Of a DNA stretch of 64,000 nt, positions 5,469 to 63,793 are shown in pieces. The translations under genes were made by a program, and so were the position numbers. The DNA is taken from positions 132,964-196,963 of the forward strand of contig JBAZMP010000002.1 of the NCBI GenBank assembly GCA_041649715.1, given 5' to 3'. The notes below the pieces were generated by a model, which was not told the DNA's origin, ran no database searches, and worked only from the letters and a program-made list of their open reading frames with translations. This DNA is from Patescibacteria group bacterium. Lineage in GTDB: Bacteria > Patescibacteriota > Patescibacteriia > JAXHNJ01. The first letter of the stretch is position 1, and every line of letters begins with the position of its first letter.

Positions 5469-5894
5469 TTAAAAGGGGATATCTTCCACATTAATTTCTT
5501 CTTCGTTTCCTTCCGCCGCCGGCGTTTCGCCGGGAGTTTCGGCCGCCGGTTGAGGAGCCGTCTCGCCTTTTTTATCCAGCATGATCATGTTGGAAATCAC
5601 GATTTCGGTCCGGTATTTTTTCACCCCTGTCGGGTCGTCCCAGGAGCGGGTTTGCAAACGACCTTCGACATAAACCTTGCTGCCTTTTTTCAAATAAGCG
5701 GAGCAGGTTTCGGCCATTTTGCCCCAGGCGACTATATTGTGAAATTCCGGCTTGTTTTGTCTTTCGCCGGCCTGGTTTTTCCAGACGCGGTTGGTTGCCA
5801 CGCCGAAAGAGCAGACGCTTTGGCCGGAAGGAGTGCTCCGCATTTCCGGATCACGGGTGACATTGCCGATAAGCATGGCTTTATTTAGATTCAT
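5469..5894 (-). CDS. ssb: single-stranded DNA-binding protein
   Basis: OB fold '[36 protein letters not shown]...[12 protein letters not shown]'. Acidic C-terminal tip '...EDIPF'. Confidence 0.95.
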
Positions 5895-5925
5895 AAGGGT
5901 TGGTCTTAATTAGTTATATTGTTAA

Positions 5926-6390
5926 TTATTCTTTTACGACGTCATCGCCCAAAATTTCATCCAATTTTTTATCCAATTCTTCAATACTCACTTTCTGAAG
6001 TTTTTCCTTGGTCTTTTCTTTAGCCGGTTCCTTCTTAAATATGCGCGGAGCCGGAGCTTCAATGGTCACCGGTCTAGGACGGATTACCTTGGGTTTTTCC
6101 TTAACCGGTTTTTTAATAACCAGCAAAAAACGAAGAATTTCCGTCAACAGTCTTAATTTTTGTTCAAGCGCCGGAAGTTTAGACGGTTCCAGGTCAAAAG
6201 ACAGGAGGTTATAATAGCCCGCGACGGCTTTTTTGATCGGATAAGCCAGCTTTTTTTTGCCCATCATTTCGGTGGCCGTGGCGGTGCCGCCGTCGTTTTT
6301 CACCAAGTTTTCTATTTCGGCCGCCAGTTTGGCGTGTTCTTCGTCAGTAAAATCCGGCCGGATAATATAGAGCATTTCGTAATGTTTCAT
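5926..6390 (-). CDS. rpsF: 30S ribosomal protein S6 with basic/acidic C-terminal extension
   Basis: 'MKHYEMLYIIRPDFTDEE...GYYNLLSFDLEP'. Sits in the conserved rpsF-ssb-rpsR order. Confidence 0.9.
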   Translation of the reverse strand: MKHYEMLYIIRPDFTDEEHAKLAAEIENLVKNDGGTATATEMMGKKKLAYPIKKAVAGYYNLLSFDLEPSKLPALEQKLRLLTEILRFLLVIKKPVKEKPKVIRPRPVTIEAPAPRIFKKEPAKEKTKEKLQKVSIEELDKKLDEILGDDVVKE

Positions 6391-29146: not shown

Positions 29147-29231
29147 TGGTGCCCTGGGGGAGATTTGAACTCCCATCCCGTGAGGGACACGCTCCTGAAG
29201 CGTGCGCGTATGCCAGTTCCGCCACCAGGGC
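29147..29231 (-). tRNA. tRNA-Leu(CAG), CCA encoded
   Basis: Hand fold. Acceptor GCCCTGG/CCAGGGC. D arm GCGG-aactggcata-CGCG. Anticodon arm CACGC-ttCAGga-GCGTG. Long variable arm. T arm GGGAG-ttcaaat-CTCCC. Ends A-CCA. Confidence 0.93.
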
Positions 29232-46247: not shown

Positions 46248-46276
46248 CAAGAATTTCAAAATTAGATCTTCGGTAA

Positions 46277-46310
46277 ACCCCGTTTCCAGTGGGAACGGGG
46301 TTTTCTTTTA
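46277..46310 (+). terminator. intrinsic terminator
   Basis: AAACCCCGTTTCC-agtg-GGAACGGGGTTTTC. Confidence 0.7.
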
Positions 46311-46359
46311 GCCAAAAATATGTTATGGTATAATGCACTTGCAGAATGGAAAAATGAAG

Positions 46360-46480
46360 GTGGGCAGAGCGGAGGGTTCGCATATCACCGCAAAGCGGGA
46401 CCCCCCCGCAATGCGGGGTGGGTGGTCTAGTGCGCTTGCTTGTCCCGCAAAGCGGGATGCCGCTCTGCGGCAGAGAGCCG
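46360..46480 (+). other. GC-rich structured segment built from tRNA-Ser 5'-half fragments plus small hairpins
   Basis: 'ggagggttcgcat' (11/13 match to tRNA positions 1-13) and an exact 21-mer 'gtggtctagtgcgcttgcttg' (46422-46442 = 46572-46592). These are separated by hairpins CCGCaaaGCGG, CCCCGCaatGCGGGG and TCCCGCaaaGCGGGA, all closed by GCAGAGCGG/CCGCTCTGC. Confidence 0.6.
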
Positions 46481-46557
46481 GAAAATAAGCATATGTATTC
46501 TGTCTGCATATAAAAGTTATAAAGGCGGTTTGCAATTTAATAAGTAGCGGAAAGAAC

Positions 46558-46644
46558 GGAGAGGTCGCATAGTGGTCTAGTGCGCTTGCTTGGAGAGCAA
46601 GTAGACCTTCACCGGTCTCGCGAGTTCAAATCTCGCCCTCTCCG
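46558..46644 (+). tRNA. tRNA-Ser(GGA), no encoded CCA
   Basis: Acceptor GGAGAGG/CCTCTCC. Anticodon arm CTTGC-ttGGAga-GCAAG. Long variable arm. T arm GCGAG-ttcaaat-CTCGC. Discriminator G. Confidence 0.92.
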
Positions 46645-46761
46645 TTCTTCCCGCTACAATCTTGCCCTCTCCGCCAATTATTTTAAATAAAAAAATCGCA
46701 AAAGTCTTGCATTTTTCTGGCGGGTGTTTGTTAAGATAAATTAAGTCGCAATTTGATTGGT

Positions 46762-47910
46762 ATGAATTTCTATGACCTTAGGAATAAAATAGGCCGCTAT
46801 AAAAAATTTTCCCTTGTTACGACACTAGAAAAAAGCTCTGTAGTAAACGAAGCCTATCCGGGCCAATTTAATCTTAGCTTCACTGAATCAAAATGGCTGG
46901 ATAAATTTGACAATTATATAGATGTAAATGAAGATTTTTTCTTTAGTACCATACAGCCCGTTATTAGATACAACGACTTCAAAAATCAAATCTTAACAAA
47001 TAAGACTGCGCACAAACATCTAGCGTTATTTGATATGGCAGATTTGGTCGGAGCAGGAGTTTTTGTTGATAAGAATTCGGGCAATAACTTTACAATACTT
47101 GAGATTCAAGAATTTATTAAATTATTTTTGGAGCTAAAAATTTCTCTCGACAGAGTATATGTTAGTAGCTTTGCCGGCGCGAAAGTAAATGAGGCTACAA
47201 GAGGGAAATATAAATTTGAAAAATTTATACCACCATTTGAATTCGGAAGAAATCAGTGGGTGAAAAACGGGATACCTTCAAAAAATATTATTCCCGATAA
47301 GTCTCGTGACACATTTCTAGCTCTTAATCTTTATGGAAGACCAACGCCCTGGGGTTATCGCAACGAAATTTATATTAAATCTTCCGCCGGCGAATTAATT
47401 GATATCGCTACGTTAGAACATTTAATTTGGTGCCCCGTTTTTAAAGACGGCGAGATTATTGATTTAGTTGACTATGAACATTTCGTAGGTTTGAATGTTA
47501 TTGGAGTCGAAAGGTTATGCATGATCATTAATGATTTCACTAATATTTCTCAATGTGAACATATTTATCCTCTAATCTTAGCGATTAAAAAAGTTTCATT
47601 AAATTACAATTACCATTCGGCTTTTACCGTTGTCGAGAGTGTGCGGGCGGTACATAGGATTATTGCGGATATCGACAAACCAAGCAATCTGTCAAAAACG
47701 CGTCATACAAAATTTAATGATTATTTAGAGGCTTTATACATTCATTTGAATATGCTTAAAATATCAGATAAGATGGGTGTGTTAGAGAAAATATTTGAAT
47801 TAAATGCGAAAATCAATCCGCATTATCCGGAATTACAAAGTGCGGCTAACAATGCTAAAAAAACAGTAGAAGCATATTTTGAGGTAAGATTTAAAAATAG
47901 GGATTGTTAA
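46762..47910 (+). CDS. free-standing AlaRS catalytic-core-like (class IIc) paralog, divergent
   Basis: Colinear remote matches to E. coli AlaRS, recalled from memory. 'STIQPVIRYNDF...KTAHKHLALFDMADLVG' vs 'TSQRCVR...TARHHTFFEMLGNFS'. 'IGVERLCMIINDFTNISQCEHIYPLI' vs '[27 protein letters not shown]'. 'VVESVRAVHRIIADIDKPSN' vs '[22 protein letters not shown]'. AT-rich. Confidence 0.55.
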   Translation: MNFYDLRNKIGRYKKFSLVTTLEKSSVVNEAYPGQFNLSFTESKWLDKFDNYIDVNEDFFFSTIQPVIRYNDFKNQILTNKTAHKHLALFDMADLVGAGVFVDKNSGNNFTILEIQEFIKLFLELKISLDRVYVSSFAGAKVNEATRGKYKFEKFIPPFEFGRNQWVKNGIPSKNIIPDKSRDTFLALNLYGRPTPWGYRNEIYIKSSAGELIDIATLEHLIWCPVFKDGEIIDLVDYEHFVGLNVIGVERLCMIINDFTNISQCEHIYPLILAIKKVSLNYNYHSAFTVVESVRAVHRIIADIDKPSNLSKTRHTKFNDYLEALYIHLNMLKISDKMGVLEKIFELNAKINPHYPELQSAANNAKKTVEAYFEVRFKNRDC

Positions 47911-47942
47911 AGAAAAACTTAAAATAATACTAATAATATTCC

Positions 47943-49106
47943 ATGAGACAAGAATTTGAAACAGATTTAAGAGATTTCGGCCAGGTGGCCAAAGAAGAGT
48001 TAAATACGGAAGAAAAACTTTCAGGGGGCAACTTCGAGAGTTTGTCTGCCGTTTCACGCCAGGATGAAGCGGCCAAAAGGCAGCATACCTCCCGCGAAAC
48101 GCAGCGTGAGATTTATGATATCCAAAAAGAAAAGCAAAAGATAATGCAGGCCTTAAAGGAACAACTGGCATGTCTGGACAACCCTGAGGGCAGACTGGAG
48201 CGGGAAAGAGGCGAACGGACGGTTTCTTTTGACGAAGCAGAGGGTGTTTTCGTTTATCAAGATGACCGGGGCCGCCGGCAAAAAGCGACTTTCGGGGAAA
48301 TCATGACCGACATGGATTGGAATGTTCTTTACCACCTGGATAAAGATTCAGCGCCGCGGCCCATGGTAAAGAAATACCTGGTGGAAAGAGCCAAGGCAAA
48401 ATTGTCGGCTCTGCTGGATCTGCAGATCATCAAAAGCGAGTCCGGAAGCAGTGTGGTCCACGAAAAAAAACAACAGGCTTACCGCCGCATTGAAATGGAC
48501 AGACAAAGCGGGGCGGTCAAGGAAAGCTGGGGCTTGGTTTCCGAGTTGATCGTCAAGGACTTTTTAAAAAAATTGAGCCTGGACAAGGATTTCCCTTTCA
48601 AGATCAAGGAAGCGGATGTTTTTCAGGACGTGGAGGAAAAAATCGATTTCATCATCCACCTAGAGAAGAAAAAACGGGGCGTTAACGTGGAGACCGACGA
48701 AAAAGCCAAGGATATCGGCATCCAGTTCACCGTTTCCCCGGAGGTGGCGCCGCACAAGGAGCAACAGCTGCAAAAAGCCAGGCAGGATGTCAAAAAGCAA
48801 GGAGAACGCATTGACGATATCGTCTTGGTCGTCTTTCCCCTGAAAATGGCCAGCGCCTTGCAGCGGCAATGGCGGCACGAGGGCCGCCCGGCCGGCGGGC
48901 CGGATAAATTTTTGTACCGGCAGGAGGCAGAAAAGCTCTTCAAGGAATTGCTGCAGGGCGTGCTTAAACCCGAGGAAATTGCCCAATATTGGGCGACTGT
49001 CCAGAACAATTGGGAAGAAGACCCGCAAATTATCGAGGAAAGAAAAACGCAGCGGGCCAGACACCAAATGAGTCAGCAAGCCTTAAAAAATAAAAATCAG
49101 CAGTGA
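47943..49106 (+). CDS. hypothetical charged protein (possible D..EEK nuclease-like motif)
   Basis: Long uninterrupted ORF. 'EADVFQDVEEKIDFIIHL...GIQFTVS'. No confident family. Confidence 0.55.
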   Translation: MRQEFETDLRDFGQVAKEELNTEEKLSGGNFESLSAVSRQDEAAKRQHTSRETQREIYDIQKEKQKIMQALKEQLACLDNPEGRLERERGERTVSFDEAEGVFVYQDDRGRRQKATFGEIMTDMDWNVLYHLDKDSAPRPMVKKYLVERAKAKLSALLDLQIIKSESGSSVVHEKKQQAYRRIEMDRQSGAVKESWGLVSELIVKDFLKKLSLDKDFPFKIKEADVFQDVEEKIDFIIHLEKKKRGVNVETDEKAKDIGIQFTVSPEVAPHKEQQLQKARQDVKKQGERIDDIVLVVFPLKMASALQRQWRHEGRPAGGPDKFLYRQEAEKLFKELLQGVLKPEEIAQYWATVQNNWEEDPQIIEERKTQRARHQMSQQALKNKNQQ

Positions 49107-49139
49107 TTAGAGTGTTTAGAGAATTGAGGTATTGAAAAT

Positions 49140-49496
49140 ATGAAAACCACCCTTAAAATTTTATACGGCCTGCTTTTTCTTTTAACCGCTTTCTGGCTGG
49201 CGGCGGGTTTTTACATGTTATTTAAAGAGGTAAAGGCGGAAATTTTCTGGCCGGCAAAAATCATCGCGATTCTCATGATCGGCAATGCTTTTATTTTCTT
49301 GGTTTTGGCCTGGGGAGTTTGGAAAAAGAAAAAATGGCTTTTCTATCCCGGTCTGATCTATCTGGCGATAAACGTCATTTTAAGCATAGCTGACCAGCTG
49401 GGATTCTGGGATTTTGTCGGCCTTGGTATCAGCCTGATAACTTTAATTTTTTTCTACAAAGCAAAAGCGGTTTTCAAAGAAACAAAGCCGGCCTGA
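49140..49496 (+). CDS. hypothetical 4-TM membrane protein
   Basis: Four hydrophobic helices. ATG preceded by 'GAGGTATTGAAAAT'. Confidence 0.6.
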   Translation: MKTTLKILYGLLFLLTAFWLAAGFYMLFKEVKAEIFWPAKIIAILMIGNAFIFLVLAWGVWKKKKWLFYPGLIYLAINVILSIADQLGFWDFVGLGISLITLIFFYKAKAVFKETKPA

Positions 49497-49599
49497 CTTG
49501 GACAAAACAGGAGAAATATGTCGCAATATGAGCCGAGCGTGGCTTTTTTTGCAAATATTGCTATAATATTAGGGCCTATTTGTCTGATAATATATTAAG

Positions 49600-49899
49600 A
49601 TGCCTAGCCCAGAAGAAAATAAATTTCAAGAAACAGAAGAGGATAATTTGGAATTAAAGCAATACAGGGAGTTTGATTTGGAATCTTTGCGACAAATGCA
49701 GGGTCGTTTAATGGTCAAGATAGAAGAAACAAGAGCACTTATAGCGGACAAGCAGCAGGAGATTAAGATAAAAGAAGAGCAAAAAGATGATGATGGTGTT
49801 TATGTCTGCGGATTGGAGTTAAGGCAAAAAGAGACGGTTCTCGGGGGCCTTGAGGAGAATTTAAAAATGTTGAATATGGCAATAGAAGAAAAAATATAA
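49600..49899 (+). CDS. hypothetical coiled-coil protein
   Basis: Heptad-like charged sequence. No family assigned. Confidence 0.45.
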   Translation: MPSPEENKFQETEEDNLELKQYREFDLESLRQMQGRLMVKIEETRALIADKQQEIKIKEEQKDDDGVYVCGLELRQKETVLGGLEENLKMLNMAIEEKI

Positions 49900-49917
49900 A
49901 TCATAACTAATAAAACT

Positions 49918-50250
49918 ATGCCCAGAGAACACGAAGGGGAAAATCCCGAAGAATCGTTTAGCGAAACAGACAGAGAAAATGAAAAAGAAATATCAGTCAC
50001 ATTATCTCGGGAATCGACATTTGCCGACCTGTACAGATTGATGGAAAATCATGAAAATAGTGAAGAATTGAAGGATTTGTTTGATCAGGAATTAATCGAT
50101 AATTTCGGCCAAGAAATAGTTGATGAAGTTATGGCTTTTGAAGAATCTGCTAACCCTGAAGCGGCCAAAACAAAAGTAATTGATTTCTTCGTGGAGCGCG
50201 GTTATGAAAAAGGGGATATTATTGCTTATTTGCCCGTTGAATTTAAGTAA
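49918..50250 (+). CDS. hypothetical acidic protein
   Basis: Highly acidic 110-aa ORF. No family assigned. Confidence 0.45.
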   Translation: MPREHEGENPEESFSETDRENEKEISVTLSRESTFADLYRLMENHENSEELKDLFDQELIDNFGQEIVDEVMAFEESANPEAAKTKVIDFFVERGYEKGDIIAYLPVEFK

Positions 50251-50257
50251 TACAAAA

Positions 50258-50345
50258 CGTCACCTCGAGGTATCCTTCGACGCGGCTCAGGGCTCAGCCT
50301 GACAATATGGACTAAGCCTTTTTTTGCCCGGGGTTTGGGGGGGAA
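50258..50345. repeat. degenerate member of the GTCACC..GAGG / CTCAG..TGACA palindromic repeat family
   Basis: 'cgtcacctcgaggtatccttcgacg..ctcagggctcagcctgacaat..actaagcc..gcccggggtttggggggg'. Confidence 0.6.
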
Positions 50346-50354
50346 CAAAAAGCT

Positions 50355-50819
50355 ATGCGCGACCCGAAGCTTGAAACATCAGGAAAAATAATCGGCTTTT
50401 ATGAAAGGGAGTTTTATTGTTTTTCCAATTTTTCAAGTTTTAAAGTGGAGTGGCAGGGTAAAATCTGGATGACCTCGGAACATGCCTATCAGGCGGCCAG
50501 ATTCTTGAAAACCGCGCCGGCCATCGCGGAAGAGATTTATAAGGCCAGGTCCGCCCACGAAGCGAAAAAGATCATGGAAAGAAACCGGGCCAAAGAGGAG
50601 CCGAACTGGGAGACCAAGAAGGTTGGCGTGATGGAAGAAATATGCTCTAATAAACTCAAGCAGAACCCTTATATCCAAAAGAAGCTGCGGGAAACCGGAA
50701 CAAAAGATATTGTGGAGGATTCGCCGGTGGATGGTTTCTGGGGCTGGGGTCCTGATCGCAAAGGCAGAAATGAACTTGGGAAGATTTGGATGAGATTAAG
50801 AGAGAAACTGTCACCCTGA
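50355..50819 (+). CDS. NADAR (YbiA/DUF1768) family protein
   Basis: 'FYEREFYCFSNFS...WMTSEHAYQAARF', 'DGFWGWG'. The last four codons and the stop lie in the repeat core. Confidence 0.8.
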   Translation: MRDPKLETSGKIIGFYEREFYCFSNFSSFKVEWQGKIWMTSEHAYQAARFLKTAPAIAEEIYKARSAHEAKKIMERNRAKEEPNWETKKVGVMEEICSNKLKQNPYIQKKLRETGTKDIVEDSPVDGFWGWGPDRKGRNELGKIWMRLREKLSP

Positions 50820-50942
50820 GGTGCGGAGCCTCGAAGGGTGACGCCTGAAAAAAGGCACATTGTCTATGCTTCGAGACGCCCGCCGGGCTCCTCAGCATGA
50901 CAATGTGGGCTAGCCTTTTGAGCCCGTGGTTTGGGGGGCGAC
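50808..50942. repeat. palindromic repeat element with 34-nt core TGTCACCCTGAGGTGCGGAGCCTCGAAGGGTGAC (core 50809-50842)
   Basis: Core identical at 50809, 51905 and 52560. The second half ends '...ctcctcagcatgacaat'. Confidence 0.85.
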
Positions 50943-51027
50943 GGAGATATCAAGATATTGTCCGCCCAAGGCGGATCCGCCTCTGGCGGAAGATGTCGAG
51001 AACTAGTTAAGTAAAAGGCTTACATTT

Positions 51028-51243
51028 ATGATAAAAAAGAATACCAAAGCCATTTTTCTTGACGGTGATTACAAAGGCGAATATGACTGGCAAGGAGGCA
51101 TCCCTCTTTTTGAAGGAGAAATTATGTCCGTCAAAGTTAAAGGGAAAGTGCTTCCTTACAAGTTAATTAAGAAGGAAGTTTCTTGTGAAGCAGAAAGCGA
51201 TGATCAGGTAATTGAGGCTGTTTATACTTTCAAACTGACATAA
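51028..51243 (+). CDS. hypothetical small protein
   Basis: 71-aa ORF between repeat elements. No family assigned. Confidence 0.4.
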   Translation: MIKKNTKAIFLDGDYKGEYDWQGGIPLFEGEIMSVKVKGKVLPYKLIKKEVSCEAESDDQVIEAVYTFKLT

Positions 51244-51311
51244 AAAACTTCTCGGGGTTTGGGGGAGGAAAAATAATTAACTAATATATTAATATTAAGG
51301 AGGCAAAATAT

Positions 51312-51903: not shown

Positions 51904-52027
51904 CTGTCACCCTGAGGTGCGGAGCCTCGAAGGGTGACCCTTTAATAAGCTTCCGCTGTCTATACTTCGACACCTTCGCCCTTCGATGCCACTCAGGGCT
52001 CGGGCTCAGTATGACAGCGGACTAAGG
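51904..52027. repeat. palindromic repeat element (core 51905-51938)
   Basis: Identical 34-nt core. Second half 'gctgtctatacttcgac...ctcagtatgacagcgg'. Confidence 0.85.
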
Positions 52028-52558: not shown

Positions 52559-52665
52559 TTGTCACCCTGAGGTGCGGAGCCTCGAAGGGTGACGCTTTGA
52601 TAAATACTACTGCCATACTTCGAGGCACTTCGCTTTCGCTCGTGCACCTCAGTATGACAGTATGG
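52559..52665. repeat. palindromic repeat element (core 52560-52593)
   Basis: Identical 34-nt core. Second half 'ctgccatacttcgag...cctcagtatgacagtatgg'. Confidence 0.85.
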
Positions 52666-55722: not shown

Positions 55723-56910
55723 ATGTCCAGGCAGGCAAAAAAGAAGAATAAATCAAAAAAATCTTTTAATAAAAAAAAGGCCGCTAAACCAAGAAAGACG
55801 CCGAAAGAGAAGTATCTAAAGGCGGATTTTCCCCGGGAAAAAATCGAAGATTTGATCAATAAGGGCCGTTCGCGCGGTTTTATCACCGAGACGGAGGTTC
55901 TTTATGTTTTGCCGGATTTAGAGGATTATTTGTTGGAATACGAGCAATTGATGGATAAATTTGAAAATCTCGGCATTGTCATCGTGGAATCGCCGACCTC
56001 TATTTTAGCGACAAAAAAAGAAAAGGAAGAATACCAGGAAAAATTCGGGCACGGGAAGGACGCCCGCCGTTTTGACCTGGGCGACATTTCCGATGATTCC
56101 ATCCAGATGTATTTAAGGGAAATCGGCAAAGTCCATCTTTTAAAGACGGAAGAAGAGGTCAGTCTGGCCAAAAGGAAGGAAAAGGGGGACATGGAAGCGC
56201 AAAAAAAACTCGTGGAAGCGAATTTGCGTTTAGTGGTGTCCATCGCCAAAAAATTTACCGGCCGTTCATTGTCCCTGTTGGATTTGATTCAGGAGGGCAA
56301 TATCGGTTTATTCCGGGCCGTGGAAAAATTTGATTATCGCAAGGGCTATAAATTTTCCACTTATGCCACCTGGTGGATCAGGCAGGCGATCACCCGGGCG
56401 CTGGCCGATCAATCCCGCACCATCCGTATTCCCGTTCATATGGTGGAGACGATAAATCGTTTCCAGCAGGTGGAAAGACAATTGATTCAGGATCTGGGCC
56501 GCGAGCCCCTGCCGGAAGAGATTGCCGCCGAAATGGGCGAACCGGTGGAAAAAATCCGCCACATCATCAATATTTCCCAGGATACTGTCTCTTTGGAAAC
56601 CTCGGTGGGCGACGAAGAAGAAGATTCCACTTTGGGTGACTTTATCGAAGACGTAAAAACCATCACGCCGGACCGGGTGGCCGCTTTACAACTCCTGAAG
56701 GATCACGTAAAAGATATTATCAAGGAATTGACCCCCCGCGAGCAGAAGATATTGGAAATGCGTTTTGGATTGCTTGACGGCGTGGCCCATACCTTGGAGG
56801 AAGTAGGCAAGGAATTCGGGGTGACTCGCGAAAGGATCCGCCAGATCGAGGCCAAGGCTTTGGAGAGAATCCAGGAACATCACGGGATGAGAAAGCTGAA
56901 GGATTACTAA
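55723..56910 (+). CDS. rpoD: RNA polymerase sigma factor RpoD
   Basis: Region 2 '[39 protein letters not shown]'. Region 4 '[24 protein letters not shown]'. Confidence 0.96.
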
Positions 56911-56927
56911 TAATTAGTACCCAAAGC

Positions 56928-56999
56928 TCCGCGATAGCTCAATGGTAGAGCAACCGGCTGTTAACCGGTAGGTTGTCGGTCCGAATCCGACTCGCGGAG
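56928..56999 (+). tRNA. tRNA-Asn(GTT)-like gene with non-canonical T-loop (TCCGAAT)
   Basis: TCCGCGA ta GCTC aatggta GAGC a ACCGG ctGTTaa CCGGT aggtt GTCGG tccgaat CCGAC TCGCGGA g. Position 55 is C instead of the near-universal U. Flanked by TACCCAAAGC / GCTTTGGGTA. Confidence 0.7.
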
Positions 57000-57020
57000 C
57001 TTTGGGTATTTTATTTATTT

Positions 57021-57222
57021 ATGGTATCCCTGGTTGCCGCTGCAACCGGGACCCCGGCGCGAAGCGCCAGGGGGAGCAGCCGGCTGTTAACCGGTAGAGT
57101 CTGTCCTGAGTGGCAACGAAGGATTGTCGGTCCTGCGCCCGAGGCGCACCCGCCTTGGGCGGGGAATCCGACTCGCCCCGTACCAAAGCGCTTGCGCTTT
57201 GGTACGGGGCTCGCGGAGCTGG
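57021..57222 (+). pseudogene. second tRNA-Asn-like copy broken into four blocks by GC-rich hairpin insertions
   Basis: Blocks 57074-57097 (23/24 match to copy 1), 57124-57133, 57164-57176 and 57210-57220. They are separated by inserts of 26, 30 and 33 nt. The 5' part is replaced by hairpins. Confidence 0.55.
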
Positions 57223-57254
57223 CGAGATTATTTTTTTGTCGTCTAGCCAGAATT

Positions 57255-57290
57255 AAAAAGCCCCTTTTAGCAAAAGGGGCCTAGTTTTTG
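57255..57290. terminator. bidirectional terminator
   Basis: AAAAAGCCCCTTTT-agc-AAAAGGGGCCTAGTTTTT. Confidence 0.7.
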
Positions 57291-57295
57291 GGGGA

Positions 57296-57622
57296 TTATG
57301 CTCCCAATATCTGATGACGAGGCAAGAGCTTTTTCAGGAGAGCAGGCGTCGCATTTTCCAGCTGGAAAGCCTGGCGGAAAGGTTTCGCAATCTTGGGGTG
57401 AAAAAGGCTCAAGACTTCTTCCAGACTGCCTTCTCTTCGGGTTCCCCCGTGCTCGGGATCTTGAGCGATGGCCACGAAAGATTTTTCTTGCCGGGTGATG
57501 GAGATGGTAAGGCAAGGTTCCAGATTCCAGAGGGTATATTCCTCGATTTCGACCACTTGGCCGTTTATTACCTGGATGGTATCCGGTGGCAGTTTTGCCC
57601 TATCGGCTAATCCTGGTTCCAT
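57296..57622 (-). CDS. hypothetical protein
   Basis: Strong RBS 'GAGAGGAGGAAAT' before the ATG on the minus strand. The overlapping plus-strand ORFs lack one. Confidence 0.6.
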   Translation of the reverse strand: MEPGLADRAKLPPDTIQVINGQVVEIEEYTLWNLEPCLTISITRQEKSFVAIAQDPEHGGTRREGSLEEVLSLFHPKIAKPFRQAFQLENATPALLKKLLPRHQILGA

Positions 57623-57706
57623 ATTTCCTCCTCTCGAGTTTGGGCGGAAAGAACGAATTTATAAGGTATCTAGATGTTATTAAAATAAGATACATTTGTC
57701 AATATC

Positions 57707-57736
57707 TTGACAAATGCGGCTCATTTGCTCTAAGAT
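57707..57736 (+). promoter_or_regulatory. promoter TTGACA-N18-TAAGAT
   Basis: TTGACA 57707-57712, TAAGAT 57731-57736. Confidence 0.55.
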
Positions 57737-57746
57737 GTAATTACTT

Positions 57747-57803
57747 ATGAAACTTGCGAAGCAAAATCTGAATAACAATAATAACCGTCTTTTGGCCGGG
57801 TGA
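57747..57803 (+). CDS. candidate 18-codon leader ORF MKLAKQNLNNNNNRLLAG (six Asn codons)
   Basis: ATG about 4-10 nt after the predicted TSS, with no SD. Codons AAT CTG AAT AAC AAT AAT AAC. The 3' end GGCCGGG is complementary to the terminator 5' arm. Confidence 0.35.
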   Translation: MKLAKQNLNNNNNRLLAG

Positions 57804-57832
57804 GTTTCATTTAATTTGTAATTATGAGGAAA

Positions 57833-57857
57833 CCCGGCCAAATGAGCCGGTTTTTTT
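57833..57857 (+). terminator. intrinsic terminator (attenuator candidate)
   Basis: CCGGC-caaatga-GCCGG followed by TTTTTTT. CCCGGCC (57833-57839) can alternatively pair with GGCCGGG (57794-57800). Confidence 0.75.
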
Positions 57858-57867
57858 GTTTATAGCC

Positions 57868-58148
57868 GGGCGCCGCGCTCAGGGGTAGTTGAGCTGGTAC
57901 CCCGCATAACTCACTGTGTTCGTATGCGGGGCAGGCAACGCCGGTAATATATTTTAATGATTATTCCAGCTCTCCTGTAGTTTAATTGGTAAAACGCTGC
58001 ACTGTTAATGCAGAGATTGGAGGTTCGAGTCCTCCTGGGAGAGCTGGGATAATCATTGTAGCACTGCTTGTCCCGTAGGAACAGAAAGCGACTTACGGGA
58101 TTAATGCGGAGACCGCTGGTTCGAATCCAGCCCCCTGAGCGCGGCGCC
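57868..58148 (+). pseudogene. degenerate tRNA(Asn-like) gene interrupted by hairpins and by a complete nested tRNA-Asn cassette
   Basis: 18-bp closing helix GGGCGCCGCGCTCAGGGG / CCCCTGAGCGCGGCGCC. 5' block 'tcaggggtagttgagctggta'. 3' blocks 'gcactg' + 'ttaatgcggagacc GCTGG ttcgaat CCAGC cccctga g'. Hairpins at 57900-57931 and 58071-58100. Confidence 0.55.
57971..58043 (+). tRNA. tRNA-Asn(GTT), canonical
   Basis: TCTCCTG ta GTTT aattggta AAAC g CTGCA ctGTTaa TGCAG agatt GGAGG ttcgagt CCTCC TGGGAGA g. Closely resembles E. coli tRNA-Asn. Flanked by GATTATTCCAGC / GCTGGGATAATC. Confidence 0.93.
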
Positions 58149-58294
58149 AGTGTTTCGTCTGTCCGTCGAAACCCTGAAAGGGTGAAGGCGGAAGCCCACC
58201 TGGAGGAGCCAAATATTATTTAAATATTTGGTAGAAAAGAAAAACGCCCCACGAAGCGACAATTGTTTTGTGCTTTGTCGGGCGTGTACTGAGA

Positions 58295-58510
58295 TCAGGC
58301 TTGTGCCTTCCCCTTTCTTTTTTCTTTGTATTCGTCGAGGTTTTCGGCGAGAAATACCCACTTTTCTTCGCCTGTATTTATGATGCCCCCAGATTCTTTG
58401 CGATAAACCGCTTTACAGGCCTTGCATGCTTTTACTCTTCCGAATCCTCCGCAACCGCCGCTTTCGAGATGTTCCCAATCACTTTTTCCACACTTTGGGC
58501 AAAATTCCAT
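58295..58510 (-). CDS. small zinc-ribbon protein
   Basis: RBS 'GAAGGGAGGG'. 'CPKCG...CKACKAVY'. Confidence 0.6.
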   Translation of the reverse strand: MEFCPKCGKSDWEHLESGGCGGFGRVKACKACKAVYRKESGGIINTGEEKWVFLAENLDEYKEKRKGKAQA

Positions 58511-58629
58511 GATTTACCCTCCCTTCAATTAGTTACAGTTAGGTGAATTCCATATCTAATGTACAGTTAATATGTAAATTTATTATATCTACATTAATTT
58601 GTCAAGTTCCCGCAGCTCGGCGCCTTTAG

Positions 58630-58658
58630 TTGACAAGTCTTATTAACCAAATTAAAAT
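58630..58658 (+). promoter_or_regulatory. promoter TTGACA-N17-TAAAAT
   Basis: TTGACA 58630-58635, TAAAAT 58653-58658. Confidence 0.6.
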
Positions 58659-58698
58659 AGTTAATCAAGATAAGCCTTTTTTATTCAAAGGAGTGGTC

Positions 58699-58935
58699 AT
58701 GTCAAAAAAGAAAAATAGGGGAAGTCTCCAAAAGCTTGGCGGTACGATCGGCAGCCGGAAACACGGGAAAAGCGGCCATGTTCATAATGAACAGCATTTT
58801 ACAGGCACGAAGGCCGGGAAAAGGCAGCGCCGAAACCGGAGAAAGAGCAAAAAGGGAAGCGAGGCTTTTTCTCTCACGCGCAAGGAAAGGCACGCCAAGA
58901 GAAGAACGCACGTGAACAAATACCGGACAAATTAA
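58699..58935 (+). CDS. small, extremely basic protein
   Basis: RBS 'AAAGGAGTGG'. 78 aa rich in K/R/H. Terminator at 58942-58972. Confidence 0.55.
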   Translation: MSKKKNRGSLQKLGGTIGSRKHGKSGHVHNEQHFTGTKAGKRQRRNRRKSKKGSEAFSLTRKERHAKRRTHVNKYRTN

Positions 58936-58941
58936 TTCCGG

Positions 58942-58972
58942 ACCGCTGGCTCTTGCCGTCAGCGGTTTTTTC
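58942..58972 (+). terminator. intrinsic terminator
   Basis: ACCGCTG-gctcttgccgt-CAGCGGT followed by TTTTTT. Confidence 0.7.
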
Positions 58973-59000
58973 TTATTCAGAAATATGTTAGAATAATTAT

Positions 59001-59462
59001 ATGGACCCAAACGCCATTAATTTTTTAAGAGATTCGCTGGCTCACCACCATAATTTGAGGAATTCTTTGGACGGCAAAGCCTCTTTTTTATTGGCCATTG
59101 CCGGGGTGGTTTTCGGCTTAAGCGTTATCAGACTGGAAAAAGTCCAGTTTGTGGTGATTGCCATTACCGCTTTTCTGACCATTCTTTTGACGGTCTTCGC
59201 CGTCTTTCTGCCTTACCGCGGGAAAATGAAAGAGAAAATCGGCCTGATGTGCTGGTGGGGTTTCGCCGGAAAAAGTTATGAAAGCTACCAGGAAGAAGTT
59301 AATCGAGTTATTAAAACTGACGAAGCGATTGCCGACGAATATAAGAAGGAGATCTGGAATCTGGCCAATTATTCTCTAAGACCGAAGTCAGTCTTGCTGA
59401 AATGGGCGAGTTTCGTTCTGACGGTCGGGCTTTTGGCCGGGTTTGTTCTGTTTTTCGTTTAA
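59001..59462 (+). CDS. 3-TM protein, DUF5706 / Pycsar-effector (PycTM)-like
   Basis: 'HHHNLRNSLDGKASFLLAIAGVVFGL' followed by a second TM and a C-terminal TM. The pattern was recalled from memory and was not searched. Confidence 0.45.
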   Translation: MDPNAINFLRDSLAHHHNLRNSLDGKASFLLAIAGVVFGLSVIRLEKVQFVVIAITAFLTILLTVFAVFLPYRGKMKEKIGLMCWWGFAGKSYESYQEEVNRVIKTDEAIADEYKKEIWNLANYSLRPKSVLLKWASFVLTVGLLAGFVLFFV

Positions 59463-59612
59463 ATAATAGAATCAAAATAGCCGAATTTTAGGGCTATTTT
59501 TTTGTTTGACTAAAAATCATTCTTATGGTAAGAAACATTAACGCCCTTTGACAGTTTTATAATTTTTCAAGTCACAAAACACAGAAATCTTCAAGAAAAC
59601 AAGGAGGTGGAG

Positions 59613-62501
59613 ATGGAAGAGAATCATGGTTTTAACCTGGAAACGCCCCTGGCTGTGACCCCTGATGATATTAAGAGCATTTCTGATCCATCTCCGCGTT
59701 TTCGGAGCTGGGCCTGGCAAATGTATCTTCGCCGCGAGCTTAACCTGATCGTGGAGGCGGTCATCTGGTTGGGCAAAGCGGCCAATATCATCGAAGCCCT
59801 TGCTTATCTTAACCGTCTGACGGTTGAGTATCCGGAAACCGAGCTGAAGGTCGTGGTCAAGGATCTGGAGAATATCCGAGATCCCGGCCCGAAAATGGTG
59901 AAGCTAAGAACCCTCGTGAGAGGGATCAGAGCCAAAGCGAAGGATCCGCAGCTCACGCGCGGCGCCTTGACGCATCAGGCGGTCAATGACCTTTTTAGCG
60001 GTCGGCTGATGTCTTCCGGCGGGAGAAGAACCGACAAGACTTCTTCTCAGCTTGAATTGTTCAAGCTTGAGAAAAGCCGTCAGATTCTTCTTTTTGATGA
60101 ATTCGCCGAGGAGTCAGTTCAAAGCGAAAAATCGGAAAAAATGCGTCTGAGCCGCACCCGAGTGCTTAATCGGATTCAGCATCACTGGAAAGTGATAAGG
60201 TCGGCCATCGAAAAGCAGGGTTGGCCGGCCTGGCGACGGAAAAGGCGAAACGTCAATTGTCTGGAAAAATGGCTGGCGATTCTTTTCGGCGAACACGCCG
60301 TTAAGCTTGGCGCCGAAGTAGGCTTCGGCGAACACTTTAAGGTGTTGACCGAGCTGACTTGGGCCGCCGCCGCGAGCTATTGGCTGAGAGAAAGACAAAG
60401 GCCGATGATTTTGTTCCGGGAGATAAACGTGATTGCCTCGCGTCATCACCTTGGCGGCGGACGCATTGACGCTCTTGAGGTGCGTCGCATCGGCGGAAAG
60501 TTGCCGAATCGGAGGCAAGACCGGATACTTACCGAAATGAGCCGTAACCGCTATAAATCCGTCGGCCATCTGATCATGGAGCTTGGCAAACGCTTTGACC
60601 AGCCGGTTGAAGTGACGGTCATCGACTGGAAATCTTTGGTCGGCGACGTGGTCACCGGGGATAAAGAATGGTCTTCGACGGATTTAAAAAAAGAACCCCA
60701 ATTCGCCGATCAGGAACAGATGAAGAGGTATCTGACGCTGATCCCTCTGGATTGCTACTTGGTCGGTCAAAAAGGTGAGCTTTGGCGACCCGAAGACGTG
60801 ACTCTGCGCGGGGAACTCTGGTATTTGATGCCTGACCAGGCGCCCATTGTTCATGAAGTGAGCATGGCCGTCGAGCAAATGCAGGATTATTTTTTGAATT
60901 ACGTCGTGCTTGAGTGGCCCGAAGCTTCCCGGCGGGCTTTGGCCAGGGAAGTCAATAACATTTTCCTTCGCCATCTGGTCGAGATCCATGAAAAAGGGGA
61001 AAGTCGCCCGAAGAAAGGAGCTTTCGGCAATAATCATAACGGGAATCAGGCTCTGCCACTTTTCCCGGAAGAAAAAGTAAAAGTCGTGTCCGTCCGGGAG
61101 ATAATCCGAGCGCATCGGGATAAATATCCGCTCTTTGCCGACCGCCGGCAGATTCTCCAGATTGTGGGCAAGCGCCGCAAGACAGGGACCCATAAATTGG
61201 AGATGAATTACAGCAAGCTGCTAGAGGCCATGGCAAAAGGGGAGGTAAAAACCTACAGTTGGTCGGATCCCGCCCAGCCTTTTACCGTGCAGTGCCTGAT
61301 GGACGATCACCGGGATTCTGACCCTTCCATGCGTATTTATCCCGACTGGTTACGTTTCTGGTGTTTCGGTTGCCGCACGGGCGGAAGCATTGCCATTGAA
61401 TCCGTGCCGGGCGACCTCGCCAATCGACTGGCGCCAAAATGGCAGGAAATCAGCCGCCAGCCCACTAAGCTTGACTGGTCGGTCTTGCCGGTTATTCCCG
61501 AAGAACATGACCGGATTATGCGCCGCGCCCAGCAGTTGCTGGCCTTATCTTTTTGGCCTAGTCCGGCGGTGGAATATCTGCGTCAAGAAAGGAGAGTAGA
61601 TCCTTCCCTGGCTTATGAATACGGCGCGGGTTACGGCAATAACAGCTTGATCATCGGGTTGATGAGTGAAGGTTATTGCTTAGATGATCTGATCCGCTAC
61701 GGATTCGTAAAAATCACGCCTAATTTCTGGCGGGCCAGCAGTCTGATCGGATTGTTGCAGGAAGAGTTCGGTCTTTCCGCTCAGGAAATCACGCGCGAGT
61801 ACTTATCTAAGAAGACTCAGCGGACGGAAATTGGTTATCCCTATTCAGTTCTGGCTGGCCGCGTGACTTTCCCTTTGAAGCTTGAAGGCAAACACACCAA
61901 TTTCTATGGCCGGATAATTCCGCCTACAGAGGAGATGCTGACGCACATCAAGCTTTCGATGCTGGGCGAAAAAGTCGTCCAGGGCGGCTTCAATACCGAC
62001 ATTCTTTTGTCAGACGCTAAGGAGGTGAAATTTGCCGAAGCGGTCATTGATACTCTGACCTTAGCCCAGATGGGTTATCGGAACGTGATCGCTTTGGTCG
62101 GCACCGAGAATGTCGAGATTCTCAAAGCGGCGATCCGGGCCCGCAAGAATATTGGCTTGTCCCTTGATTACGACAAGTTCGGCCGGAAGCTGACCCTGAG
62201 GACGATCAGGCGTTATTTGGCCACGGTGAATTTGGGCGGCGAAAAAGTCTGGCGGGAAATTGATCAGTATGTCCGCGAGATTGAAGAAGCGATCAAGAGG
62301 GAGGAAACGGGAGAAAAAGAAGCTCTTCATTTCGGGGAATATTTCCGCCGGCTGGGTTACCTGGGGATTGAGGATTTCACCGCTAGATTCGTGGCTGACC
62401 ATCGGGAATGTCTTGGTCGTGAATTTGATTTCAACACCTGGTGGCAGAGATTCGGTTGTCAAAACGCACCTTTATCTTGGGAGGAAGACAATAACGCGTA
62501 G
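59613..62501 (+). CDS. fusion protein: RecB-family PD-(D/E)XK nuclease-like N-terminal half + CHC2 zinc finger + Toprim primase-like C-terminal half
   Basis: RBS 'AAGGAGGTGGAG'. 'GGGRIDALEV', 'VTVIDWKSL', 'EQMKRYLTL' (D / DxK / QxxxY). 'CLMDDHRDSDPSMRIYPDWLRFWCFGCRTGGSIAIE' (CHC2). 'FAEAVIDTLTLAQMGYRNVIALVGT' and 'LSLDYDKFG' (Toprim E, DxD). Confidence 0.75.
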   Translation: MEENHGFNLETPLAVTPDDIKSISDPSPRFRSWAWQMYLRRELNLIVEAVIWLGKAANIIEALAYLNRLTVEYPETELKVVVKDLENIRDPGPKMVKLRTLVRGIRAKAKDPQLTRGALTHQAVNDLFSGRLMSSGGRRTDKTSSQLELFKLEKSRQILLFDEFAEESVQSEKSEKMRLSRTRVLNRIQHHWKVIRSAIEKQGWPAWRRKRRNVNCLEKWLAILFGEHAVKLGAEVGFGEHFKVLTELTWAAAASYWLRERQRPMILFREINVIASRHHLGGGRIDALEVRRIGGKLPNRRQDRILTEMSRNRYKSVGHLIMELGKRFDQPVEVTVIDWKSLVGDVVTGDKEWSSTDLKKEPQFADQEQMKRYLTLIPLDCYLVGQKGELWRPEDVTLRGELWYLMPDQAPIVHEVSMAVEQMQDYFLNYVVLEWPEASRRALAREVNNIFLRHLVEIHEKGESRPKKGAFGNNHNGNQALPLFPEEKVKVVSVREIIRAHRDKYPLFADRRQILQIVGKRRKTGTHKLEMNYSKLLEAMAKGEVKTYSWSDPAQPFTVQCLMDDHRDSDPSMRIYPDWLRFWCFGCRTGGSIAIESVPGDLANRLAPKWQEISRQPTKLDWSVLPVIPEEHDRIMRRAQQLLALSFWPSPAVEYLRQERRVDPSLAYEYGAGYGNNSLIIGLMSEGYCLDDLIRYGFVKITPNFWRASSLIGLLQEEFGLSAQEITREYLSKKTQRTEIGYPYSVLAGRVTFPLKLEGKHTNFYGRIIPPTEEMLTHIKLSMLGEKVVQGGFNTDILLSDAKEVKFAEAVIDTLTLAQMGYRNVIALVGTENVEILKAAIRARKNIGLSLDYDKFGRKLTLRTIRRYLATVNLGGEKVWREIDQYVREIEEAIKREETGEKEALHFGEYFRRLGYLGIEDFTARFVADHRECLGREFDFNTWWQRFGCQNAPLSWEEDNNA

Positions 62502-62613
62502 ACTCGTTTGGTTTATTGCCAAATGGTTCTGCGCGTTTTTTTATGGGCTTATTATTGTAATATTGGGCCGATTCTTTTATAATTATCTGGTGATATAATT
62601 AAATATAAAACCT

Positions 62614-63111
62614 ATGAAAAAATCTGTTATTTTCGCACTTTGCCTGTTGGCGGGCACCGCTTTGATCCTGACCGGCTGCGGCAAAAGCGCGGCGGAAAAA
62701 GCCGCCGAAAAAGCAGCGGAATCGGCGACCAACGGCCAGGCGGATGTTGATTTGAGCAATCAGAAGATAACGGTAAACACCAACGGATCCACGATCGAGG
62801 TCGGCGGAGATATCGCTTTGCCCTCCGGTTTTCCGGAAGATGTTTATGTCGTTGACGGCACCATCAAGTCGGCTTCCACGGTCAACGAGGGCAAGGGTTA
62901 CAGCGTCATGATCGAAACAAATCAGAGTGTGGCCGATCTCAAGGATCTCTATGACGCAAAGCTGAAAGAGGAGGGCTGGAATATCACCTTCAGCATGAAC
63001 TTGGGCGACAGCTTCACCATGGCTGCGGAAAAGGGTAACCGTACCGCCAATGTCACTCTCGGCCAGGGAGAAGAAGCCAATACCGTCCTTATCGGGACAA
63101 GCGAAAAATAA
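62614..63111 (+). CDS. lipoprotein
   Basis: Lipobox 'LILTGCGKS'. Terminator GCCTCTTT-tc-AAAGAGGC at 63138-63160. Confidence 0.7.
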   Translation: MKKSVIFALCLLAGTALILTGCGKSAAEKAAEKAAESATNGQADVDLSNQKITVNTNGSTIEVGGDIALPSGFPEDVYVVDGTIKSASTVNEGKGYSVMIETNQSVADLKDLYDAKLKEEGWNITFSMNLGDSFTMAAEKGNRTANVTLGQGEEANTVLIGTSEK

Positions 63112-63205
63112 TATTTTACCGTCTATGTTAATAAATTGCCTCTTTTCAAAGAGGCGATTTATGGTTAAGATTACGACATTGATAAGGTAACAATATTTTT
63201 GATTT

Positions 63206-63685
63206 ATGAACAGTGCCATAAAAAAGGGTTTCGGCTTCGGCCTGACTTCTGGCGTCATCACCACCCTGGGGATGATCGTCGGTTTACAAGCCGGCACCGG
63301 TTCGAAAACGGTGGTCTTGGGCGGCATTTTTATCATTGCTTTAGCCGATGCCCTTTCTGATGCCTTGGGCACGCATATTTCTGAAGAATCGGAAGACCAG
63401 CATTCAAATAAAGAAATTTGGCAGGCGACTTTCGCCACGTTCGTCGCCAAGCTGATAGTTGCTCTTACTTTTGTCGCGCCCGTGCTTTTATTCAGTTTGA
63501 CGACGGCTATCTGGATCAGTATTGTCTGGGGTCTTTCCCTGATCATAATTTTCAGTTATTTGATTTCCCGCGCTCAAGGCCTTAAGTCGGCGGCTTACGT
63601 CGTTTTTGAACATCTGATTATCGCGGTTTTCGTCATTATCGCCACCCATTATATCGGCGACTGGGTGAATAAGATTTTCGTGTAA
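63206..63685 (+). CDS. VIT1/CCC1-family (short form) membrane protein
   Basis: 'GLTSGVITTLGMIVGL', 'IALADALSDALGTHISEESE', C-terminal TM helices. Confidence 0.7.
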   Translation: MNSAIKKGFGFGLTSGVITTLGMIVGLQAGTGSKTVVLGGIFIIALADALSDALGTHISEESEDQHSNKEIWQATFATFVAKLIVALTFVAPVLLFSLTTAIWISIVWGLSLIIIFSYLISRAQGLKSAAYVVFEHLIIAVFVIIATHYIGDWVNKIFV

Positions 63686-63793
63686 AGAATATTTATCTTG
63701 AAGTTATATTAATGATATGCTTTGTTTTTTTCGTATAAAAAACAGGGGTTCGTCACGCTTGGCGTGACTCGCCCCCGATTGTCGTTTGTCTGT

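Follow-up and report, generated by a model that had tools for sequence, protein, structure and literature searches.

Why would a tRNA gene be enclosed in a long helix formed by its own leader and trailer? Bacterial tRNA genes are normally simple, with the leader removed by RNase P and the trailer trimmed. The question is raised by a 64-kb stretch of DNA (the window), part of the 255-kb metagenomic contig k141_1136829 (ENA ERZ27247363) of a bacterium of the Patescibacteria, or Candidate Phyla Radiation (CPR), in which four tRNA genes are called by ARAGORN, one each for Leu(CAG) and Ser(GGA) and two for Asn(GUU). ARAGORN and Rfam place the tRNA-Ser gene and both tRNA-Asn genes where an initial annotation had put them, and the flank complementarity it had noted around them is present, in register with the acceptor stem. 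A conserved leader-trailer helix of this kind (a stalk, in what follows) is unusual for bacterial tRNA genes.

The genes, arms and older gene copies of the tRNA-Ser and tRNA-Asn loci all lie on the plus strand of the window. The intact tRNA-Ser(GGA) gene occupies positions 46558–46644, with the discriminator G at 46644 and no encoded CCA (Rfam tRNA model, 56.9 bits). Its 5′ arm GTAGCGGAAAGAAC (46544–46557, inverted repeat I6) faces GTTCTTCCCGCTAC (46644–46657), that is, the discriminator and the 3′ arm TTCTTCCCGCTAC (46645–46657); 13 of the 14 positions are paired and one is an A.C mismatch, the 3′ arm being the reverse complement of the leader save for one transition. The first intact tRNA-Asn(GUU) gene, Asn1 or type A (56928–56999, 71.9 bits, no CCA, T-loop TCCGAAT), is preceded by a 5′ arm (56916–56927, inverted repeat I17) that begins 6 nt past the rpoD stop codon. 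It is followed by an in-register 3′ arm (57000–57010) that runs into a U-tract, TTTTATTTATTT (57009–57020). Here TACCCAAAGC (56918–56927) and GCTTTGGGTA (56999–57008) form the ten uninterrupted Watson-Crick pairs that had been described, and one G.U and one A-U pair further out bring the total to 12 bp. The second intact tRNA-Asn(GUU) gene, Asn2 (57971–58043, 69.5 bits, no CCA), is nested in an older copy of a type B gene and has arms at 57956–57970 (inverted repeat I9) and 58044–58057, the latter with no U-tract behind it; AATGATTATTCCAGC (57956–57970) pairs with GCTGGGATAATCATT (58043–58057) over 15–16 bp, including one G.U. In all cases the 10–16 bp contributed by leader and trailer are continuous with the acceptor stem, giving helices of 21 bp (Ser, with its one A.C mismatch), 19 bp (Asn1) and 22–23 bp (Asn2), and of 17–23 bp in related genomes. 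The tRNA-Leu(CAG) gene (29147–29231, minus strand) serves as internal control: it encodes CCA and, as already noted in the initial annotation, has no flank complementarity. It is called by ARAGORN and is not among the Rfam tRNA matches at the gathering threshold.

The stalks are among the best inverted repeats of the window. For each of its three stalked tRNAs, none of 500 shuffles of the trailer reached the duplex energy of the native arms, and the regional folding z-scores are between −7.4 and −9.2. Chance is excluded by these shuffle controls together with the covariation described below, and an assembly artefact is ruled out by the presence of the same features in independent ENA, JGI and NCBI assemblies.

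The distribution of the helix was followed in three comparison sets: 80 RpoD-anchored loci from GTDB genomes of other Patescibacteria and of Firmicutes; loci of closer relatives, with 76–94% RpoD identity; and all metagenome contigs with the type A tRNA-Asn core (individual loci are given by labels such as L082). The RpoD of the window itself is 94% identical to proteins of 'Patescibacteria group' metagenome-assembled genomes (MAGs) and 72–80% identical to Kerfeldbacteria-labelled ones. With a leader-trailer duplex of −12 kcal/mol or better counted as a stalk, stalked tRNAs make up 15 of 31 in the close clade and 3 of 43 in the distant loci (Fisher p = 6e-5). Within the clade, 14 of 23 tRNA-Asn genes are stalked and one of eight other tRNA genes, namely the tRNA-Ser of the window. 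A general Patescibacteria trait is thereby rejected: the three cases among the 43 tRNAs of the 80 RpoD-anchored loci include neither an Asn nor a Ser. The suggestion that the helices mark a distinct maturation route for the tRNAs of this organism at large is likewise unsupported, because tRNA-Leu and the tRNA-Ser genes of the examined relatives are without the helix and distant tRNAs have it in 3 of 43; it is confined to the tRNA-Asn loci of the clade and to the tRNA-Ser of this genome. CCA is encoded, and a stalk is missing, in the PpsA-linked tRNA-Ser orthologues of L085, L090 and L092 and in the tRNA-Ser of both L105 and L106; the tRNA-Ser of L093 has neither CCA nor stalk. No further tRNAs are found in the 10 kb flanking the window on each side. 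A CCA-encoding tRNA-Met of a Clostridia MAG (L077, 4336–4412, minus strand) has a two-part leader-trailer duplex of −19.2 kcal/mol, and similar helices may occur sporadically elsewhere.

Comparison of close relatives shows that the helix is kept while the sequences of its arms are replaced. The body of the type A tRNA-Asn is 100% identical in the window, L082 and L083, and its arms are unrelated: TACCCAAAGC / GCTTTGGGTA in the window, CCCCGCCCGC / GCGGGCGGGG in L082 and AGGCGCGAGC / GCTTGCGCCT in L083. Further families of arms are present in L100, L101 and L103 (shared), in L104, in L097 and L106 (shared), and in L088, L085 and L093. That the arms are unrelated to each other also rejects the possibility that all stalks are copies of one palindromic insertion. 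When seven type A orthologues of tRNA-Asn, whose acceptor stems are identical and whose bodies nearly are, are aligned without gaps, 11 of 13 stalk pairs vary on both sides and 90% of the cells are paired, a level matched by none of 500 shuffles and compared with 37–55% pairing in slid registers. Single compensatory changes from C:G to A:U separate L097 from L106, and the outer copy of the window from the third tRNA-Asn of L083 (Asn3), while L103 differs from L100 by wobble transitions in the stalk. Three type A orthologues are unstalked: those of L099 and L096, which encode CCA, and the first copy of L090, which lies 5′ of an intron-containing copy.

Most stalked genes, including all three in the window, are without encoded CCA, and most adjoin, or are embedded in, the remains of an earlier copy of that tRNA, fragments into which GC-rich hairpins have been inserted. 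The latter association rests on a reading of the loci; a k-mer test of it, confounded by neighbouring intact tRNAs, was not significant. At the tRNA-Ser locus, the older outer 5′ fragment (46371–46481), recognised by alignment to the intact gene, reads GGAGgGtTCGCATA, hairpins, GgTGGTCTAGTGCGCTTGCTTG, a double mini-hairpin (46443–46472) and GAGAGCcgG, so that hairpins interrupt its D-loop and its anticodon loop. The same variant 5′ fragment, GGAGGGTTCGCATA, is also present in L085. An AT-rich spacer of 62 nt separates the fragment from the 5′ arm of the stalk. Directly behind the 3′ arm, the outer 3′ remnant AATCTTGCCCTCTCCGCCA (46658–46676) repeats the last 16 nt of the intact gene (46629–46644) with one mismatch and then continues with CCA; two matches are found where 0.03 are expected by chance. 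The 13-nt 3′ arm thus stands between two direct repeats of the tRNA 3′ end, of which only the distal one carries CCA; there is no third copy downstream. In front of the whole complex an extended −10 element, TGgTATAAT (46326–46334), read from the sequence, lies 3′ of a terminator (46275–46303); the consensus promoter scan made no call there, so that the promoter is a putative one.

At the type A locus the order is different. The intact Asn1 gene and its U-tract are followed by a partial tRNA-Asn copy (57021–57218) that extends from the D-loop to the 3′ end and is cut up by GC hairpins: a CCTGAG..CGAAGG hairpin (57105–57122), a double mini-hairpin (57134–57163) and a 36-nt palindrome (57175–57210) flanked by a 5-bp CTCGC repeat. 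L082 has the same layout of stalked intact tRNA, U-tract and hairpin-inserted partial copy, while in L083, L088, L100, L101 and L104 an older 5′ fragment (..AATGGTA, ending in the D-loop) precedes the stalked intact copy, with an older 3′ part behind it. For the outer type B copy (57869–58149), which now encloses Asn2 and its stalk, the orthologue in L083 (7738–7811) is a gene that is intact and stalked. Its 5′ part (57869–57900, inverted repeat I15) consists of the stalk arm GGCGCCGCGC, the acceptor strand TCAGGGG and the D-arm; its 3′ part (58107–58149) consists of the 3′ strand of the anticodon stem, an intact T-arm, the acceptor strand CCCCTGA, a G and the stalk arm CGCGGCGCC. This outer copy is degenerate and is closed by a perfect 17-bp helix (57869–57885 with 58132–58148). 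Intact copies inside older, hairpin-interrupted ones represent a previously undescribed mode of tRNA-locus evolution in the reduced genomes of Patescibacteria, and no paper was found that describes such stalks, tRNA-enclosing terminators or nested bacterial tRNA genes.

The effect of the arms on folding was evaluated in silico, for whole composite transcripts with native or shuffled arms. With native arms the correct acceptor stem forms with a probability of 0.84–1.0. With shuffled arms this falls to 0.00 for Asn1 and to 0.35–0.72 for Asn2, and the acceptor stem also collapses in L100, L103 and L104. These predictions support a role of the stalk in shielding the live tRNA from pairing with the near-identical fragments next to it. 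A second regularity lies behind the 3′ arm, where about 12 of 16 stalked genes, by inspection, have a U-tract directly after the arm, among them most of the rpoD-linked tRNA-Asn genes and Asn1. In the best 8-nt window after the arm, the mean number of T is 5.5 for stalked genes, 3.4 for unstalked tRNAs of the clade and 3.0 for the distant loci (p = 2e-4 and 8e-6, respectively). The rpoD-linked stalks begin 6–20 nt past the rpoD stop codon, at the end of the dnaG-rpoD unit, and the U-tract would point to termination as much as to processing. For processing, the relevant precedent is the inhibition of bacterial RNase P by a 5′ leader that pairs with the 3′ RCCA end and so extends the acceptor stem, as described in PMC9433436; on that basis, a stalk of 10–16 bp would have to be opened or cut first.

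The explanation that we put forward, tentatively and as one that may well fall short, is that the stalk clamps, as RNA, the live copy within a nested tRNA locus and, at the rpoD-linked tRNA-Asn genes, serves as a terminator stem as well; that it probably arose by inverted duplication of the leader; and that it probably needs a double-strand cut before RNase P can act. With the helix in place, the live tRNA would fold independently even though the transcript also carries near-identical fragments. At genes with a U-tract behind the arm, acceptor stem and stalk together would act as an intrinsic-terminator stem whose loop is the tRNA body, and this would end the dnaG-rpoD-tRNA transcript. Release of the tRNA would then start with a cut in or at the helix, by an RNase III-like enzyme or RNase Z, and be followed by CCA addition. 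The arms themselves would be made at the DNA level, through inverted duplication of the leader by fold-back template switching at the acceptor-stem palindrome, which would explain the near-perfect arms, their wholesale replacement and the usual lack of CCA. To judge from its repeats, the tRNA-Ser locus looks like the footprint of a single such event, in which the reverse complement of the leader was inserted after the discriminator. A conserved helix that would block RNase P implies either that processing includes a further, ordered step or that the tRNA has a second function, at the core of a terminator.

Several observations weigh against this explanation. The folding effect is small for tRNA-Ser (0.998 with native arms against 0.87–0.93 with shuffled ones) and absent in L083 and L088, and in L085 and L092 the tRNA-Ser copies are nested but unstalked. 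The helices of tRNA-Ser, Asn2, L093 and L083 Asn3 have no U-tract, and termination therefore cannot be a universal role; a terminator with a structured loop of 58 nt is, moreover, unconventional. When stalk pairs are scored without bias, G.U pairs (seven) are not significantly commoner than A.C mismatches (four), and it follows that pairing at the RNA level is not separated from complementarity at the DNA level. Only four tRNAs of this genome were sampled, and the sampled loci are phylogenetically related, so that the p-values given above overstate their independence.

The stalk differs from classical intrinsic terminators in its loop. It has in common with them a GC-containing stem, in about 12 of 16 stalked genes a U-rich tract within 0–2 nt, the position at the end of the dnaG-rpoD unit and, in several stalked genes, an A-rich upstream stretch that pairs with the U-tract. 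However, the loop of an intrinsic terminator is 3–8 nt long, whereas here it is a folded tRNA, with about 58 nt between the acceptor strands. The consensus terminator scan made no call at the tRNA-stalk sites.

Alternatively, the helix could be first of all a processing stalk like those of rRNA operons, a putative substrate of RNase III or Mini-III in which a double-strand cut would free the tRNA from the rpoD mRNA or from the pseudo-tRNA transcript; the short stubs left by the cut would then go to RNase P, RNase Z and the CCA-adding enzyme. We regard this as an unlikely account of the stalks; it is compatible with the clamp proposed above, of which it may be the downstream step. In its favour, the helix is continuous over 17–23 bp, including the acceptor stem, and almost purely Watson-Crick (171 of 184 stalk pairs, 93%). 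The missing CCA of most stalked genes agrees with it as well, as does the first base of the trailer, a C in 10 of 13 in-register stalks, where a cut with a 2-nt stagger would leave G73-C74. The inhibition of RNase P by pairing between leader and 3′ end (PMC9433436) makes a prior cut logically needed. Such pre-tRNAs share with our case a leader that pairs with the 3′ side and the poor access expected for RNase P; the known natural cases involve a few base pairs with the RCCA end, whereas here 10–16 bp are formed with a trailer other than CCA and are kept by covariation. The restriction of the trait to tRNA-Asn and one tRNA-Ser locus speaks against a processing stalk, which also leaves the association with the U-tract unexplained. 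Helices of 17–19 bp, the size of several of the stalks, are short for a typical RNase III substrate, and the stalks as a group straddle the two helical turns (~20 bp or more) of near-perfect dsRNA expected of one. The 82 kb of the contig that were covered contain no gene for the enzyme.

In rRNA operons, as here, long-range pairing between the flanks surrounds the mature RNA and lengthens its terminal helix, and the pairing is conserved while the sequence varies. There, however, the 16S or 23S rRNA is enclosed, whereas our stalks enclose a single tRNA of 72–88 nt; they reach 10–16 bp beyond the acceptor stem, are limited to two kinds of tRNA locus and are often followed by a U-tract. The stalk is thus a full member of neither class, processing stalk of the rRNA type or intrinsic terminator.

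A further alternative has no need of an RNA function: the inverted repeats would be the not-yet-decayed footprints of the DNA events that built the nested loci, whether fold-back template switching or snap-back repair seeded at the palindrome of the acceptor stem, or the capture, by a hairpin repeat, of a tRNA copy. The tRNA-Ser locus, with its reverse-complemented leader flanked by direct repeats of the tRNA 3′ end, fits such a by-product, and so do the near-perfect arms in which G.U is about as frequent as A.C. In relatives with 94% RpoD identity and an identical tRNA, the arms agree at only about 4 of 10 positions while the adjoining spacer and fragment are 92% identical. The genome also holds families of intergenic hairpin repeats (CCTGAG..CGAAGG and the double mini-hairpins), and the 36-nt palindrome at 57175–57210 resembles the Asn1 stalk. 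Yet stalks occur in at least seven lineages spanning 76–94% RpoD identity, with at least six unrelated families of arms, and their register with the acceptor stem is exact in nearly all cases; close relatives differ by clean compensatory changes and by wobble transitions, and the U-tract is significantly associated with the stalk. Taken together, we consider it improbable that the stalks are mere mutational residue.

The partial copy behind Asn1 is about 92% identical to L082 (11296–11470) over about 165 nt, to position ~57170, with compensatory changes in its hairpins, while the third codon positions of rpoD are only 62% identical between the two. This pattern resembles that of a structured RNA under constraint, or of a segment exchanged recently, and not that of a decaying pseudogene, recent recombination being the alternative to selection.

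The weakest rival is a mobile tRNA cassette with terminal inverted repeats, in which the arms would be recognition sites for a transposase or recombinase that carries the 'arm-tRNA-arm' unit into resident tRNA genes, and which we hold to be very improbable. The initial annotation had raised a tRNA-in-hairpin cassette, and that picture fits the anatomy in one respect, in that a CCA-less intact copy lies in or beside fragments of an older one. In favour of mobility, Ser, Asn type A and Asn type B are three independent nested cases within one window, insertion is repeatedly into the D-loop, behind ..TGGTA, the outer gene of L101 has 'TA' on both sides of the insert, gene content 3′ of both tRNA loci varies among relatives, and a GIY-YIG nuclease gene lies beside the tRNA-Ser of L085. 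Transposase-type mobility is nevertheless unlikely: arms unrelated between copies offer no common recognition site, no consistent target-site duplication is seen (the 'TA' pair being limited to L101), Pfam, PADLOC and NCBIfam reveal no transposase, integrase or homing endonuclease beside the loci of the window, the nested type A architecture is common to several lineages and looks vertically inherited, and the tRNA bodies are not found with stalks in viral contigs.

Elements with terminal inverted repeats, such as miniature inverted-repeat transposable elements (MITEs) and insertion sequences (IS), share their repeats between copies, while here at least seven unrelated arm sequences surround identical or similar tRNAs. 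Nor does the tRNA-Ser repeat resemble the duplication of an attachment (att) site at a tRNA 3′ end, since it bounds 13 nt and no integrase-carrying island. A phage origin is rejected because Asn2 is absent from viral contigs and viral tRNA-Asn genes with a similar core have no stalks, and an invertible DNA switch bounded by inverted repeats was set aside because the orientation of the tRNA is constant wherever rpoD is visible and the arms are not conserved in sequence.

Complementary GC-rich flanks also hold together the parts of the split tRNA genes of Nanoarchaeum equitans and form the bulge-helix-bulge stems of archaea. The likeness to the split tRNAs lies in the disrupted and fragmented loci, but our case is bacterial and the enclosed tRNA is complete rather than half. 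A bulge-helix-bulge, with two 3-nt bulges around a 4-bp helix, is not present; the helices are continuous with the acceptor stem, with a single mismatch in tRNA-Ser.

The type B tRNA-Asn is preceded by what appears to be a leader-peptide attenuator that regulates a tRNA gene, a reading based on modelled folds. It spans 57707–57857 and is made up of a sigma-70-type promoter (TTGACA-18-TAAGAT, 57707–57736), an Asn-rich leader open reading frame (ORF) at 57747–57803 encoding the peptide MKLAKQNLNNNNNRLLAG, and a terminator (57834–57857); the type B tRNA-Asn begins about 10 nt past the T-run. Asn leader-peptide attenuators are present in five lineages: the window (57707–57862, plus strand), L083 (7570–7716), L088 (11690–11838), L097 (2105–2241) and L106 (9100–9235). 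Their ORFs have 15–19 codons, 4–8 of them for Asn. Pairing is possible between the end of the ORF (TTGGCCGGG) and the 5′ half of the terminator (CCCGGCCAA..GCCGG-T7). In all five lineages, the predicted structure is an antiterminator (−19 to −30 kcal/mol) when the end of the ORF is free, and the terminator when it is masked, as by a ribosome at the stop codon. The literature search yielded no report of a tRNA gene controlled by leader-peptide attenuation or preceded by an Asn attenuator.

A more speculative extension of the proposal, which we think doubtful, treats these 'matryoshka' loci as the product of an active process. Clamped, CCA-less live tRNAs would repeatedly land in and replace the resident tRNA-Ser and tRNA-Asn genes, the old copies would persist as hairpin-studded, constrained RNAs, and the stalk would be an excision signal; the driver could be an arms race over the two tRNAs, for instance with tRNA-targeting nucleases or homing endonucleases. 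If this were so, a shortage of charged tRNA-Asn would, through the Asn-codon attenuator, turn on a back-up tRNA-Asn.

The GIY-YIG nuclease gene of L085, a relative with 88% RpoD identity, encodes 99 amino acids and lies directly 5′ of tRNA-Ser (5517–5816 and 5733–6070). Its 3′ end is duplicated across a scaffold gap, being present before the hairpin-interrupted tRNA-Ser fragment and before the intact gene; the nuclease may be of the homing type and be involved in rearrangements.

Position 55 of tRNA is almost universally U (pseudouridine 55). The T-loop of the type A tRNA-Asn, TCCGAAT (56980–56986), has C at this position, as do those of L082, L083 and L096, while L090, L100, L101, L103 and L104 have the usual TTCGAAT or TTCGAGC. 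The second tRNA-Asn copy of L090 (11361–11640; 84% RpoD identity) has its anticodon loop interrupted at 35/36 by a group I intron (Rfam RF00028, 61.6 bits), whose exon flanks, TTCCAGC and GCTGGGA, also pair. Group I introns at 35/36 of tRNA-Asn genes of Patescibacteria have been described (PMC13011429), that is, in the same phylum, the same tRNA and the same locus; the text of that paper makes no mention of inverted repeats, hairpins, pseudogenes or duplications. The group I intron covariance model gives no match at E ≤ 1 in positions 56850–58300 of the window.

The hairpins inserted in the older tRNA copies belong to intergenic repeat families of this genome. The CCTGAG-N(6–11)-CGAAGG family, of which GTCACCCTGAGGTGCGGAGCCTCGAAGGGTGAC is an example, has six sites against 0.11 expected: 50274–50291 (minus strand), 50815–50837, 51911–51933, 51980–51997 (minus strand), 52566–52588 and 57105–57122. 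Most copies lie just past stop codons and one lies inside the tRNA-Asn fragment; their stem would hold tandem G.A pairs. The family also occurs in L082, in L083 and in the unrelated MAG L031. The 30-nt double mini-hairpin, with two 6-bp GC stems, is found at 46443–46472, 50961–50990 and 57134–57163, and in L097, L100 and L085. Its stems vary between copies and stay paired all the same, while the loops are similar (AAA, CAA or CGA in the first, TCT or TTG in the second). One copy lies in an intergenic spacer; the others are within tRNA fragments, where they sit at, or directly beside, anticodon positions 34/35 or 35/36.

The genes near the stalked tRNAs are bacterial housekeeping genes, for a phosphoenolpyruvate (PEP) synthase-like protein, rubrerythrins, desulfoferrodoxin, dnaG and rpoD. 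Just 3′ of the tRNA-Ser (46753–51300) and of the tRNA-Asn complex (58150–63700), gene content varies among the close relatives L082–L093, and both loci look like hotspots for variable DNA. In the window, these regions encode proteins with no family match, a NADAR protein, a Pycsar-type PycTM effector and a 964-residue protein with a primase-like Toprim domain; in L088 they contain restriction and defence genes.

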